Below, piece by piece: positions 43,569 through 48,026 of a stretch of 64,000 bases of DNA. Under the pieces are notes generated by a model. The model made no database searches, had not been told where the DNA came from, and saw only the letters and a list, made by a program, of their open reading frames with translations. The DNA lies in NCBI GenBank assembly GCA_031285625.1, contig JAITVV010000095.1, positions 96,001 to 160,000 of the forward strand, in the 5' to 3' direction. Origin of the DNA: Prevotella sp. (GTDB lineage: Bacteria > Bacteroidota > Bacteroidia > Bacteroidales > Dysgonomonadaceae). Position 1 is the first letter of the stretch; every line of letters begins with the position of its first letter. The translations under genes and the position numbers were made by a program.

Positions 43569-43592
43569 TCATTTTTATATAAGAATAAAAAG

Positions 43593-43741
43593 AGGTTGTC
43601 TAAAAGGTATTTTTTACAATCTCTTTGTCATGTTGAACGGAGTGAAACATCTCGTGTCCGGAGGGTCGAGATTCTTCATTGCATTCAGAATGACAAAGAG
43701 AATAACACTTTGATAGTACAATTTTACTTTTGGGACAACCC
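43593..43741. mobile_element. Nested palindromic MITE/REP-like element, copy 2
   Basis: aggttgtctaaaa...ttttgggacaacc outer IR; tctctttgtcat...atgacaaagaga inner IR; lies between convergent genes. Confidence 0.75.
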
Positions 43742-43750
43742 CCTTTTTTA

Positions 43751-46036
43751 TTATATCGAACTTATTTTCAAACCTATAAAGAAAGTACGTGGTAATGATG
43801 GGCCATAAATATATTCCGAATCCCTGTCAGGCCCTTTATCATAATCTTTTTGTACCTGATTGAACATATTCTGTATCCCGCCATTGATCTCTACTTTATT
43901 TATAGCATTCAGGTTAAAGAAATAAGAAAGCTTCAATGTCATATCCATAAAACTACGTGTTTTAACAGTTTCGTCAAGCTCTATACCTTCTGCTCCGGCA
44001 AAGTGAGGTGTCAACATAGAGCCGGTATACACACCCGAAAGAGAGACTGCATAACTCTTATTCGGTATTGCTGTTGCCGAGAAGAATCCGTAAGTATCAG
44101 GTGAGCGAAGCATTTTCTTCACAGGTTTTACATAAGATTCTGATGACCAGTTTACAGGCTCAGTATATCTGCTCCGTTGCCATGTAAAACCACCTTGTAA
44201 TTCGAGCCAGTCTATAGGCTGAACAGTAGTCTCCAGATTCAGCCCATATACATAGGCACCATCACCATTCTTTCGTGTCATTATCGTATTCCCCATTGCA
44301 TCAGTACCGGTTTCCTCAACAATAAAAACCCTGTTTATTTTATTATAGAAACCTTCTAAAAGAAAATACGAATAGAACTTCTCATTAAACAAACTAAAAT
44401 CTATTCCTCCATTAAATGCATTCGAATATTCACGCTTCAGGTCTTCGCCCAAAACTGTAATAGTAGCATGTCCTCCAATAACGGGGATATCCAGATCTGA
44501 AGCTATAATCTCCGGAGCGCGGTATCCCATCGAGTAGGCAGCACGGAGATTCATATTTTCAGCTACTCTATACCTGATACTTCCCCGGGGAATAATATTC
44601 ATATTACTCAGTTTATTATGTTTATCACCTCTCACTCCTACTATAAGAGTAAGGTTATCGTCTCTCCATTCATTCTGCGCATAAAGGCTACTTACGTTTA
44701 CTATTTGTTTTATATTACGGCTATGAATAGTATCATGCAGATTGGTATATTCCTGTGTAAAACCTGCAGTAAACTTTGCCGGCATAAACAACAGTTTATC
44801 CATATTTACTTCATAACGCACTGTGCCCGTAGCTGCCAGCTCTGATGTGTTTCCATATCCGTTAAGATCATAACCTCCACCATAATAGCTATCTCTTGCA
44901 GTCTTTTGTATCGAACCGTTCACTGATAGTTTCCGTTTGTTATCTTCACTGGAATGAATATAACCAATCGTACCTGAATGTATTTTATAATCGGTAGTCT
45001 CGGCAATCAAGGCCTCGTGCGGAGGGCGTTTCATATTATCCCCTCCCCTTCTGTATTCAGATATATAATGATATTCTAAGGTCAGTTTATCACGCAGTGT
45101 CGGCTTTGTAAAACTACGAAAACCAACAGACGTTGCTTTATTTTTTCCTATTTCAGAAAAACCGTCATCATTGGCATCCCATGGATTACGATGACGCATA
45201 TTTGCGAACAAAGAGATCCCCGAAGTTTTAGTTCTGTCTACAAATGAAGAATTAAGAGATAATACATTATCTGCAGATTTACCATCTATCAGCGACATAT
45301 TATATTTCACCTGATAAGAATTCTTTTCAGGCTCTTTGGTTATTATATTTATAACCCCTCCTATCGCGTTTGCACCATAGAGCACAGAACCTCCACCACG
45401 TATAACCTCTACTTGCTCTATCATATTAGTTGGCATCTGCTCCAACCCGTACATCTTAGAAAGTGACGTGAAAACTGCCTGACCATCGATCAGCATCTGG
45501 GAATACTGCCCCTCAAGTCCGTTTATCCTTACTTCCTGCGTCCCACAGTTCTGACAATTAGTTTCCACCCTCAGTCCGGGCATATAATTCAATCCCTGAG
45601 ATAAAGAAACCGAGTTTGTGGCTTCAAACGTTTTGGTTGTTAACTCATTTACTACCACCGGAGAAATCTTTCTATTCAGCGACCTCAACGATGCTGTAAC
45701 AGCAACTTCCCCCAATTGCTGATTTTCGGGTTCGATGTACATAGTGACGTTTCGGGTAGCATTCTTGCCTATTATTACTTCCTGCCTCAAAGGAGAGTAG
45801 CCGATATATTGTGTTACCAGGATATATGTTCCTGCTGCAATACCATCCAGCGAGAAGTGTCCTGTCTCATCAGTAACAGTTGCGTATTGAGTTTTATCGA
45901 TATATACTGTAACACCGGGCAGGTGTTCTTCTGTTTGTCCGTCTAGTACATGACCTTTAATTGACGAGGTATTAGCTTGTGCATAAGCACCAACGGCTAA
46001 TAATATATTGAATGATAAAAGTATAAGCTTTTTCAT
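43751..46036 (-). CDS. TonB-dependent outer-membrane transporter (no SusD partner; NCQNC in plug)
   Basis: Signal peptide, carboxypeptidase-regulatory-like N-domain, PGLRVETNCQNC, IEQVEVIRGGGSVLYGANAIGGVINIITK, NMFN...PRTFFIGLK. Confidence 0.93.
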   Translation of the reverse strand: MKKLILLSFNILLAVGAYAQANTSSIKGHVLDGQTEEHLPGVTVYIDKTQYATVTDETGHFSLDGIAAGTYILVTQYIGYSPLRQEVIIGKNATRNVTMYIEPENQQLGEVAVTASLRSLNRKISPVVVNELTTKTFEATNSVSLSQGLNYMPGLRVETNCQNCGTQEVRINGLEGQYSQMLIDGQAVFTSLSKMYGLEQMPTNMIEQVEVIRGGGSVLYGANAIGGVINIITKEPEKNSYQVKYNMSLIDGKSADNVLSLNSSFVDRTKTSGISLFANMRHRNPWDANDDGFSEIGKNKATSVGFRSFTKPTLRDKLTLEYHYISEYRRGGDNMKRPPHEALIAETTDYKIHSGTIGYIHSSEDNKRKLSVNGSIQKTARDSYYGGGYDLNGYGNTSELAATGTVRYEVNMDKLLFMPAKFTAGFTQEYTNLHDTIHSRNIKQIVNVSSLYAQNEWRDDNLTLIVGVRGDKHNKLSNMNIIPRGSIRYRVAENMNLRAAYSMGYRAPEIIASDLDIPVIGGHATITVLGEDLKREYSNAFNGGIDFSLFNEKFYSYFLLEGFYNKINRVFIVEETGTDAMGNTIMTRKNGDGAYVYGLNLETTVQPIDWLELQGGFTWQRSRYTEPVNWSSESYVKPVKKMLRSPDTYGFFSATAIPNKSYAVSLSGVYTGSMLTPHFAGAEGIELDETVKTRSFMDMTLKLSYFFNLNAINKVEINGGIQNMFNQVQKDYDKGPDRDSEYIYGPSLPRTFFIGLKISSI

Positions 46037-46212
46037 GTTAAATATAATGTATGTAAAACAAATACACCAAGTATCTATCCTACAAAGATATGTGGCAGCA
46101 CAAACCCAAGAAAAAATTGTGTCGCCTTAATAATTTATACGAATAAGGGTTGATTACGGGAATGTAATCAACAACAAAAATCGGGTCTCGAAATAAGAGA
46201 CAGATTTCAAAC

Positions 46213-46593
46213 TTATAAAACTGAAAAAGGTGGTGCCCTATGGTTGAAGTAACATATAGCAGGAGGTATAATGTCCTTTAAGATAACCTGCTTATATGTA
46301 ATCTTGAGCTGAGGCATAATCATTGCCTCAAAGCTATTTTCTACCGCTTCGAAAGATGCAGTATTAGATAATTGATTGAATGTAAAGAAACCGGCCGATG
46401 TATGGTGATGCGTCTCAAATGGAGGTTGCTTATTATCATCAGCTTCCTTGGCTAGTTTTTTATATGGATGGGAATGTACATAAATAACGCCATTGTATAT
46501 ATGGCTATGTACATAATAAGAAACACAGCCGAAATATCCTATATATAACAGGAGCAATATTCCGGCTGTGTATTTTATTTTATTGGCTGACAT
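46213..46593 (-). CDS. Small His-rich membrane protein with C-terminal RAPP motif (candidate arrest/leader peptide)
   Basis: N-terminal hydrophobic helix, HSH...HSHP...HHH, ending NHRAPPFSVL; directly upstream of the TBDT. Confidence 0.75.
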   Translation of the reverse strand: MSANKIKYTAGILLLLYIGYFGCVSYYVHSHIYNGVIYVHSHPYKKLAKEADDNKQPPFETHHHTSAGFFTFNQLSNTASFEAVENSFEAMIMPQLKITYKQVILKDIIPPAICYFNHRAPPFSVL

Positions 46594-46619: not shown

Positions 46620-48026
46620 TCAGTACTGGCTATTATAGTTACTGAATATTAGTCCCATCTTCATATTTTCTTCATCAGTTCTGAGTACTGCAGATGTAGG
46701 GCTCATCTGATTATATACATTTGTATATGCATAATATGAAGATCCCGAACTTGATGTTGCCTGCTGATATTTAGTAGAGATAGGTATTACCAGATATGTA
46801 AGATCAGGTATATTATCCTTACCCTTATATTCATCCATATAATAATTTATCATGTTGGCAATATTAGTGGAAGTCCCACCTACCACATTACTATAAGTAA
46901 AATTATATGTATTTGTAGATGATGACAGTTCCATAATAAAACTGGTCTTGGCATCCGGCATTTTCTTATTCAGGAAGAAGTTGTTCAACGAATCCCGATT
47001 AATAAATAATAATGTAGTAGACCTGCCTAAATTAGATTTCTCTTCCTCTTCTGTATATCCTTTAATTTTAAAGTTTGCTGCATTCAGCTTATTATTCTTT
47101 TTACCAGAATCGGCAGCTTTTTTCATTATCTCACCCAATGGAATAGTCAACTCGGTGCAGACTCCGGCAGGACTCTTCAGGTAAGTACGGGTATCAGCAT
47201 TTGTAAATAAATTATCAGGAATTGAATTTTGTATATGATTCATCTGAATAACCTCTGGTGTCACTGTCAGCCTGAATAAGCCTACACGTGTAGAATCGGC
47301 TGTATCGGCAACATTACGGCCTGTATATTTCAGATAAATACGAAGTACGGTGGTATTTATACTCAATAAACTACCGGTACCGAAGCTATTTGTAACATAA
47401 ATCCCTTTAAAGAACTCTTTTAATGTTTCAGAATTCTTAAATGTAGCACCTTTTGAGTTTACCCATTCATCATAAAATTCCTGTCCGAGAGACCGGTCAG
47501 TTCTCAATAAGAAACTTCTCAACCCACTCGAAGCCGGGGTATCTTGTATAGTAAATACACCTTGCCCTAGTGGTTTGGACATATCACAATATTTCTTAGG
47601 ATCCACGTTGGTGAAGAAGTTCGATTTTAAAGGTTGAGTTACCCGGTAAGCAGAAATACCAAAAGGAGATATACTATCGCCTATAAATTGCTCGGAGATA
47701 ACTTCGATGAATGCTGAATCTATTGACAGGGTTTTATCCGGGAAAGTGGCATTTTCAGGACAATATAGTTCACTCAGATAATCTGAACTAACTTTTCCAA
47801 ATACAGGATCAGTGTAATTCCCCAATAAAGCCCATTCAGTACGGGCATATACCGAATCTTTCATTGAGACTGTTTTCGCTTTTATCAGAACGGTATCAAT
47901 AGATAATCCTATGCCATCACCATCCGGCTGTATTGAATTTCCTACCTGATTAATATCATCATCACACGCAACAAAAACGATCATTAAGATTGCAATTGCA
48001 AGATTCAGTAGTGCTTTAATTTTCAT
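46620..48026 (-). CDS. DUF4270-family lipoprotein
   Basis: Lipobox FVAC-DDD, LLG...DPVFG, FFKG, TYLKSPAG; sits next to the short glgA-like gene, an arrangement I recall as common in Bacteroidota. Confidence 0.82.
   Translation of the reverse strand: MKIKALLNLAIAILMIVFVACDDDINQVGNSIQPDGDGIGLSIDTVLIKAKTVSMKDSVYARTEWALLGNYTDPVFGKVSSDYLSELYCPENATFPDKTLSIDSAFIEVISEQFIGDSISPFGISAYRVTQPLKSNFFTNVDPKKYCDMSKPLGQGVFTIQDTPASSGLRSFLLRTDRSLGQEFYDEWVNSKGATFKNSETLKEFFKGIYVTNSFGTGSLLSINTTVLRIYLKYTGRNVADTADSTRVGLFRLTVTPEVIQMNHIQNSIPDNLFTNADTRTYLKSPAGVCTELTIPLGEIMKKAADSGKKNNKLNAANFKIKGYTEEEEKSNLGRSTTLLFINRDSLNNFFLNKKMPDAKTSFIMELSSSTNTYNFTYSNVVGGTSTNIANMINYYMDEYKGKDNIPDLTYLVIPISTKYQQATSSSGSSYYAYTNVYNQMSPTSAVLRTDEENMKMGLIFSNYNSQY

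Follow-up and report, generated by a model that had tools for sequence, protein, structure and literature searches.

A histidine-rich leader gene ending in RAPP upstream of a CxxC-plug TonB-dependent transporter in Dysgonomonadaceae: a candidate metal-sensing arrest peptide

What is a small, histidine-rich open reading frame (ORF) doing directly upstream of a transporter gene in a member of the Dysgonomonadaceae? We investigated this question in a stretch of 64,000 nucleotides (nt) from Prevotella sp. (the window: positions 96,001 to 160,000 of contig JAITVV010000095.1, assembly GCA_031285625.1), in which a minus-strand gene of 126 codons carries the residues Arg-Ala-Pro-Pro (RAPP) just before its stop codon and is followed by a gene for a TonB-dependent transporter (TBDT). 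Metal-sensing arrest peptides are a recently recognised form of gene control that works without a transcription factor, and the small gene most likely belongs to this class, as an unannotated, histidine-based variant of CruR and CutF, two leaders that sense copper. We consider it probable that it is a cis-acting arrest-peptide leader of the CruR/CutF type, which would sense a periplasmic metal through its histidines. An earlier note on this DNA had listed the ORF, its hydrophobic helix, three histidine clusters (HSH, HSHP and HHH), RAPP, a 176-bp spacing and a SusD-less TBDT with NCQNC in its plug, and all of these lie where it placed them.

The leader gene is divided as follows, in window coordinates.

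46213..46593, minus strand: leader gene, an upstream ORF (uORF) of 126 amino acids (aa) with an ATG start, comprising a transmembrane (TM) anchor, three His motifs, a variable spacer, RAPP and a four-residue tail.
46513..46572, minus strand: N-terminal hydrophobic segment, residues ~8-27 from the sequence; helix 3-26 in AlphaFold2, pLDDT >90.
46501..46509, minus strand: His motif 1, H29-S-H31; H29 and H31 at least 90% conserved in alignments A1 and A2 (defined below).
46465..46476, minus strand: His motif 2, H40-S-H42-P43; H40 invariant, S41, H42 and P43 at least 90% conserved (A2).
46402..46410, minus strand: His motif 3, H62-H-H64; H62 and H64 invariant in A1 and at least 90% conserved in A2.
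46240..46401, minus strand: spacer, residues 65-118, of variable sequence and fixed length, with residues 85-115 weakly conserved.
46228..46239, minus strand: RAPP arrest-type motif, R119-A-P-P122, followed by four residues (FSVL) and a TAA stop.

The N-terminal segment is predicted to be a signal anchor, and the two lysines ahead of the hydrophobic helix (K5 and K7) suggest an N-in/C-out orientation. The AlphaFold2 model of the leader (mean pLDDT 79) contains the anchor helix, a beta-hairpin (28-33/36-41) that bears the first four histidines, with His motif 1 on its first strand, two short helices and a disordered C-terminus; a search of the PDB with this model identified no structural relative (none with E<=0.001). 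There is no CxxC in the 126 residues of the leader, and we found no second hydrophobic segment in its 65-118 spacer, where the maximum KD19 is 0.86. In contigs of a ~97%-identical relative from three runs, a 3-nt insertion at 46227/46228, right after the PP codons, yields RAPPAFSVL (as in protein P0001) and leaves intact the CUUUUUCAGUU arm of an RNA helix described below.

The leader is a member of a real gene family, to which no Pfam or NCBIfam model corresponds: the window protein gave no match to either collection even at E<=1, and 121 family members scanned against both were assigned to no family, with weak matches to the His-rich HypB_prefix_2 model in 16 of the 121. A word-indexed search identified 38 close relatives, annotated as Dysgonomonas or 'hypothetical', and an exhaustive HMMER search of 1.84 billion representatives identified 194 family matches at E<=1e-3, of which 150 are covered by the motif counts given here. 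A terminal R[AGPS]P[PT], at most 15 residues from the C-terminus, was present in 135/150 representatives (RAPP in 96, RGPP in 28, RPPP in 5, RAPT in 3 and RSPP in 3), and most of the 15/150 that do not have it look C-terminally truncated or frame-shifted. HSHP was found in 124/150, an HxH ahead of HSHP in 128/150 and an HxH behind it in 133/150, and any CxxC in only 4/150. We aligned the leader with its 38 close relatives (A1, 39 rows) and, separately, with 120 representatives picked because they carry the terminal motif and are 100-135 aa long (A2). In A1, H29, H31, H40-S-H-P, H62, H64 and R-A-P-P are at least 90% conserved, with residues 85-115 free to vary. The suggestion in the earlier note that His clusters stand in place of CxxC is supported, and DUF2946 (PF11162) was matched neither by the window leader (E<=1), nor by any of the 121 family members, nor by any protein of this genome, with a PF11162 control search recovering matches in Caulobacter and Deinococcus.

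The motif is also rare in its genomic background. Among six-frame ORFs of at least 50 aa in this genome there are three occurrences of R[AG]PP, two of them C-terminal in small, His-rich membrane proteins whose genes precede metal-type genes, and in the 3,495 ORFs of at least 150 aa both RAPP and RGPP occur 0 times, where composition predicts 4.4 and 4.6, respectively. Because RAPP and RGPP are depleted from the ORFs of the genome and the leader motifs are conserved family-wide, these motifs exceed chance. We identified the family in 40 of the 61 sampled genomes of the window's own family, the Dysgonomonadaceae, and in 15 of 401 sampled Bacteroidota genomes, a patchy distribution; a profile search found it twice in the genome of the window.

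The distance between the third His motif and RAPP behaves as a ruler. From H62 to R119 there are 56-58 residues in 106/112 A2 members (full range 53-59), and in the same set the distance from H40 to H62 extends from 8 to 27; H29 and H40 are 11 residues apart in 110/120. We additionally identified a TM-like segment in the spacer of 55/118 representatives, centred ~32 residues ahead of the Arg, given which the pulling event may differ between branches of the family.

The gene that follows the leader was examined next to its counterparts elsewhere.

43751..46036, minus strand: TBDT, 761 aa, with CarbopepD_reg_2, Plug (125-228) and barrel domains (Pfam).
45545..45559, minus strand: NCQNC in the TBDT plug, residues 160-164 (C161 and C164), from the sequence.

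The TBDT matched Plug at 9.8e-22 and TonB_dep_Rec_b-barrel at 2.3e-24. It is not of the SusC/RagA type (TIGR04056, 95.2 bits against a cut-off of 368.25), and no SusD-like ORF was found after it. C161 and C164 are the sole conserved cysteines, in 19/19 and 18/19 full-length partner TBDTs, and none of the solved TBDT structures aligns a cysteine pair at the CxxC position. We also noted a conserved acidic stretch, D-A-N-D-D-G-F-S-E, at residues 284-296 of the TBDT (~45149-45187), with D287 and D291 present in 19/19 partner TBDTs, which may be likened to a calcium-binding loop.

We fetched 44 leader loci from several orders and classes, 43 of which have enough downstream DNA to judge. In 41/43 a homologous TBDT (phmmer E<=1e-45) comes next on the same strand, so that the co-conservation of HxH clusters and terminal R[AG]PP upstream of homologous TBDTs, which the earlier note had proposed as a check, is seen both in the motif (R[AGPS]P[PT] in 135/150) and in the gene order. 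CxxC is present in 39/41 of these partner TBDTs, one having C..W and one being too disrupted to judge. At locus L007, and for a further copy of the leader in genome G453 (L061), the leader precedes a CzcB/CusB-type adaptor gene and not a TBDT, an RND pump gene coming after the adaptor in L061; L017 is a weak, Cys-containing leader match with an unrelated TBDT. This genome encodes 19 TBDT-like ORFs, only two of which have a CxxC plug, and precisely those two have an upstream ORF ending in RxPP. The second His-type leader (G000:C14:25488-25817; L003 8486-8851, minus strand) is a paralogue of 121 aa with HVH, HSHL and HSHS and an RPPPVL end, and sits 69 nt upstream of the second CxxC-plug TBDT (NDCQNCG; L003 6038-8416). 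The end of the CxxC-plug TBDT gene is abutted or overlapped, in two genomes distant from each other, by a gene for a thioredoxin-like protein of ~155 aa (L051 6229-6693, minus strand; L057 5951-6424, plus strand), a hint that the plug cysteines or the substrate may be subject to redox chemistry. In the window, a ~140-nt dispersed, partly palindromic intergenic repeat (43590-43730) immediately follows the TBDT stop; it has 56 matches in this genome (72-100% identity) and a very high summed depth in RNA-type libraries. Rfam scans of this region and of the spacer between leader and TBDT gave nothing above threshold, with chance microRNA-type matches and one sub-threshold small RNA match only.

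A leader of this anatomy invites comparison with CruR (Bp2923, DUF2946/PF11162), which lies upstream of the TBDT BfrG in Bordetella pertussis, and for which RAPP and CxxC are required and their spacing matters (PMC9426467). The CxxC-RAPP distance in CruR is 45 residues, and the addition of five residues abolished copper control (Roy et al., PMC9426467); arrest by CruR was demonstrated in vitro, RAPP and RGPP being robust arrest cores (PMC12992588). The analogy with CruR drawn in the earlier note is borne out. Each gene is small, comes first and encodes an N-terminal segment for the membrane or for export, and in each product a metal-type motif keeps a fixed distance from a RAPP that only a few residues separate from the C-terminus. 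A long spacer (162 nt in CruR, 176 nt here) and a TBDT gene follow both, and C exceeds G around the end of both leaders. The window leader differs from CruR in having six histidines in place of CxxC and no DUF2946 sequence membership, in a ruler of 57 +/- 1 rather than 45 residues, in its occurrence in Bacteroidota, and in that no PepSY_TM gene follows.

A second comparison is with CutF and the CutF-like proteins, known from Rhodobacter capsulatus (PMC9973294). Of 5,334 CutF-like proteins, 19% are from Bacteroidota; TonB-type neighbours are the second commonest class after outer-membrane efflux proteins (OEP), and the His-only CutF-like clusters (14 and 17) adjoin HupE/UreJ and not TBDTs (PMC9973294). 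The window leader fits the CutF-like filters (<150 aa, PP in the last 15 residues, N-terminal targeting, and a next gene on the same strand no more than 1,000 nt away), with 126 aa, PP at 121-122, a targeting segment judged from the hydrophobic helix of the AlphaFold2 model, and the TBDT 176 nt downstream on the same strand. TonB-type receptors and HlyD_D23/ACR_tran efflux genes are neighbour classes common to the CutF-like proteins and to the leader family. The CutF model, in which the stalled ribosome opens an RNA helix over the start of the next gene, is shared by prediction here; metal strengthens the stall in CutF, and for an importer such as that of the window we infer the opposite.

RAPP and RGPP are depleted from proteomes, and uORFs that end in them precede TonB receptors across Gram-negative bacteria, a class named 'uORF upstream of TonB-dependent receptors' in the 2025 survey (PMC12992588). 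The characterised RAPP/RGPP arrest peptides ApdA, ApdP and ApcA resemble the window leader as small membrane proteins with a C-terminal RAPP, but they control Sec or YidC genes, unlike the window leader. The principle is already published, in CruR (2022), CutF (2023) and the 2025 survey, and the His-type is a variant of it. The portions of the survey available to us contain no family, motif or spacing analysis of the His-type Bacteroidota group (PMC12992588). Our literature searches returned no paper on the His-type family, the 57-residue ruler or the tie to CxxC-plug TBDTs, although supplementary lists may hold members, and nothing relevant on a characterised Bacteroidota zinc TBDT or on DUF6769. 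They likewise agree with the earlier note in returning no experimentally characterised His-type system in Bacteroidota, the closest accounts, as far as their accessible text goes, being PMC9973294 and PMC12992588.

A likeness to the leader is seen in DUF6769 (PF20558), whose members are small, His/Cys-rich and from Bacteroidota. The member in this genome (C35:72730-73179, plus strand; locus L068 1486-1932) has 149 aa, is His/Cys-rich, ends in RAPP and lies at the Pfam cut-off; it sits 110 nt upstream of a lipoprotein gene whose product has a very His-rich N-terminus and, by eye, resembles a CzcB/CusB-type efflux adaptor. Alignment of A2 to this protein with hhalign gave 87.5% probability over the anchor and first His motifs, and a remote relation of the leader family to DUF6769 is possible on this basis. 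The window leader itself has no PF20558 match, 1/121 family members matches weakly (E=0.035), and DUF6769 members carry cysteines and longer His runs, unlike the window leader.

The same observations could be read in terms of a stable protein rather than a regulatory one: the leader product would then be a membrane-anchored periplasmic metal-binding partner of the transporter (an acceptor or chaperone), with RAPP serving a structural or pausing role that is not regulatory. The conserved histidines on a confidently predicted beta-hairpin beside the anchor would suit such a partner, as would the tight pairing with one TBDT subfamily. A C-terminal half that is variable yet of fixed length is unusual for a folded partner domain, however, and the PDB search gave no structural relative; RAPP and RGPP are kept out of the rest of this proteome, the same leader precedes efflux pumps in L007 and L061, and 20 close TBDT homologues do without such a partner. 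We therefore regard a metal-binding partner as unlikely, and return to the leader as an arrest peptide that controls the TBDT.

In the mechanism that we propose for the arrest peptide, the N-terminal anchor would target the chain, while it is being made, to the Sec translocon, with the His motifs emerging in the periplasm. On reaching R119-A-P-P122 the ribosome would pause, Pro121 occupying the P site and Pro122 the A site, a placement modelled on CruR and ApdA/ApdP-type peptides, in which it has been shown. At this pause the third His pair, 57 +/- 1 residues back, would be just out of the ribosome tunnel and translocon. A divalent metal (Zn, Ni, Co or Cu(II)) could then bind the six histidines, the chain would fold, and the pull from this metal-driven folding would release the stall. 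While stalled, the ribosome would cover 46229-46219, which is otherwise paired with the TBDT start region at 46039-46028, and would thereby expose the start codon and shield the transcript from termination. Low metal would thus give a stall and the importer ON, and enough metal a release and the importer OFF, a sign that we assign because of the logic of an importer and of CruR; start-codon unmasking is chosen as an output because of the CutF model, and the RNA output may be this, Rho-type termination, or both. Our preference leans towards Zn, Co, Ni or Cu(II) over Cu(I), because the ligands are His-only and the alternative partners are CzcB/NccB-like. The metal theme is supported by the efflux adaptor and RND partners of L007 and L061, and by the thioredoxin-like gene after the TBDT in two loci.

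The RNA on which such an output would act comprises the following features.

46037..46212, minus strand: intergenic spacer, 176 nt, structured (folding).
46219..46229, minus strand: 5' arm of a long-range helix (CUUUUUCAGUU), in the codons just after RAPP (minimum free energy, MFE, structure).
46028..46039, minus strand: 3' arm of the long-range helix (AACAUGAAAAAG), which includes the TBDT start codon at 46036-46034 (MFE structure).
46185..46201, minus strand: hairpin 1 (GTCTC-loop-GAGAC) followed by CCGATTTTTG, terminator-like (folding).
46149..46172, minus strand: hairpin 2, a perfect 9-bp stem (folding).

The segment 46020-46245 folds at -52.4 kcal/mol (z = -3.94), with 0/200 shuffles as stable, and its MFE structure consists of four hairpins closed by the helix 46229-46219 / 46039-46028. 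The 5' arm lies just 3' of the stall site, where a ribosome arrested on RAPP would be expected to cover it. The window helix has a duplex energy of -11.3 kcal/mol (p=0.005 and p=0.010 against permuted arms in two tests). When the region that starts at the PP codons and reaches 10 nt beyond the stop was compared with the TBDT start across the 41 loci, complementarity reached p<=0.05 in 9/41 and p<=0.01 in 6/41, where ~2 and 0.4 are expected by chance. Both leader copies of this genome are among the significant loci, and among the window and its nine orthologues 3/10 have p<=0.015. The paralogous locus (L002/L003) contains a 13-bp duplex, with 12 perfectly complementary nt, between the leader stop-codon region and the sequence just before the TBDT AUG.

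Hairpin 2 is kept in nine Dysgonomonas spacers, with eight consensus pairs, four of which show compensatory changes. The orthologues also keep a hairpin at the position of hairpin 1 that is not followed by a U-run, and an intrinsic terminator after the leader was not adopted as the main output. C exceeds G in 38/41 loci over a stretch made up of the final 100 nt of the leader and the spacer, as against 5/41 for the TBDT coding region, a bias that is compatible with a rut-type site and Rho-type control as in CruR; the 5' part of the leader carries the same bias. The spacer matched no Rfam family.

How the leader and the TBDT are transcribed was addressed through promoter-like boxes and the gene upstream.

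46083..46090, minus strand: TATCTTTG, a match to TAnnTTTG (the Bacteroidota -7 consensus), 54 nt ahead of the TBDT ATG (sequence).
46620..48026, minus strand: DUF4270/BamH-like lipoprotein gene, 26 nt upstream of the leader (Pfam/NCBIfam; BamH is the best NCBIfam match, below its cut-off).

Across the family, TAnnTTTG is found within 200 nt upstream of the leader in 26/41 loci (32 boxes in 8,078 nt), a 12-fold enrichment, coding sequence providing a background of 18 in 53,755 nt. The spacer between leader and TBDT has a box in 4/41 loci (4 boxes in 6,594 nt). Since boxes are common upstream of the leader and rare in the spacer, their placement points to a bicistronic leader-TBDT unit. In 15/41 loci (L004, L016, L018, L019, L024, L029, L031, L033-L035, L038-L040, L043 and L045) the box starts 15-18 nt before the leader ATG, which would give a leaderless or nearly leaderless mRNA for the leader gene. 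Bacteroidota are not known to use Shine-Dalgarno-led initiation. Upstream of the leader neither the window (200 nt examined) nor its Dysgonomonas orthologues have such a box. In these the DUF4270 gene ends 10-29 nt upstream of the leader (9/9 orthologous loci, L072-L080), so that the leader may be carried on a transcript from this gene, and 7/9 of the orthologous leaders start with GTG. A second TAnnTTTG box at the window locus overlaps the leader stop codon.

The two genes might accordingly be independent at this locus, the TBDT being expressed from the 46083-46090 box and the leader on a DUF4270 operon transcript that stops at hairpin 1 or 2. The earlier note had raised the spacer box as a caveat to its own proposal; the box is real, but among the leader-TBDT spacers of the nine orthologous Dysgonomonas loci none (0/9) contains one, and the window alone has boxes there. 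Independence draws on the presence of this box where there is none upstream of the leader, on the U-run after hairpin 1, on the DUF4270 gene adjoining the leader in all nine orthologues, and, as a weak hint, on a low-depth RNA run that has a gap over 45751-46154 and one contig ending at 46155, inside hairpin 2. The box is missing from 37/41 spacers of the family as well as from those of the orthologues, the U-run of hairpin 1 is not conserved, and leader and TBDT are adjacent in 41/43 loci whatever gene lies upstream. Independent genes are, in our estimate, unlikely at this locus.

Very improbable is a role for the leader as a SecM/MifM/ApdA-like monitor of export or membrane insertion, with the stall released by Sec or YidC pulling and transporter synthesis coupled to export capacity: an N-terminal anchor with a C-terminal RAPP is the architecture of a monitoring substrate (PMC12992588; 10.1101/2023.09.02.556018), and nearly half of the representatives carry the TM-like segment ahead of the stall site, but the downstream gene encodes neither a Sec nor a YidC component, conservation outside RAPP is highest at the six histidines, the partners found in place of a TBDT are efflux genes of the metal type, and the window leader has no second hydrophobic segment.

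Several observations weigh against the leader as a metal-sensing arrest peptide that controls the TBDT. Upstream of 20 close CxxC-type TBDT homologues in leader-negative genomes we found no RxPP ORF within 650 nt; the leader thus accompanies only part of the CxxC TBDT subfamily, as an optional addition and not an obligatory partner, and the transporter can do without it. Neither Zur/Fur, ZnuABC, HupE nor another metal-specific gene was found beside the module in 20 extended loci, where the flanking genes are mutually unrelated (HydE/F/G-type, panC/panD, AraC, LysR, methyltransferases, rhomboid and LysE), and the identity of the metal is a guess. Stalling on RAPP would have to extend, by analogy, to Bacteroidota ribosomes. 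The invariance of R/P/P in A2 is by construction, its rows having been picked for the motif, the unselected figure being 135/150. In members with the TM-like segment, membrane insertion instead of metal binding could supply the pull. At the window locus the box at -54 from the TBDT ATG, with none upstream of the leader, means that the TBDT could have a transcript of its own; the region is covered by contigs from four RNA-type libraries, of which the long ones span several genes and may derive from DNA. Finally, a stricter masking test, in which the 18 nt that follow the first Pro codon were compared with other windows of sequence, was positive in 3/41 loci (value at the locus described here 0.10; median rank 0.68). 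On this result start-codon masking is rejected as a family-wide rule; as a model it suits the two copies of this genome well, together with a minority of the loci elsewhere.

Among the portions of the literature available to us, the metal-sensor leaders that have been tested are the copper sensors CruR and CutF only, both from Proteobacteria and both cysteine-based. The finding presented here defines a cysteine-free family with six histidines and a strict 57-residue ruler, tied to one subfamily of CxxC-plug TBDTs. As a fuller picture, offered tentatively, the leader may be a nascent-chain 'ruler' in which the 57 residues would span the tunnel and SecYEG, so that the third His pair joins the hairpin outside the membrane; metal folding would release the arrest, re-mask the importer start codon and perhaps allow termination. 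Periplasmic metal would in this way gate importer synthesis without a DNA-binding regulator, and the same sensor would be wired through different RNA to RND efflux pumps elsewhere. Should the arrest-peptide reading prove wrong, the family would nonetheless await a name and a function. The system bears on which metal a His-type nascent chain may sense, on how a stall may be read out without a Shine-Dalgarno sequence, and on the cargo of the CxxC-plug TBDTs.

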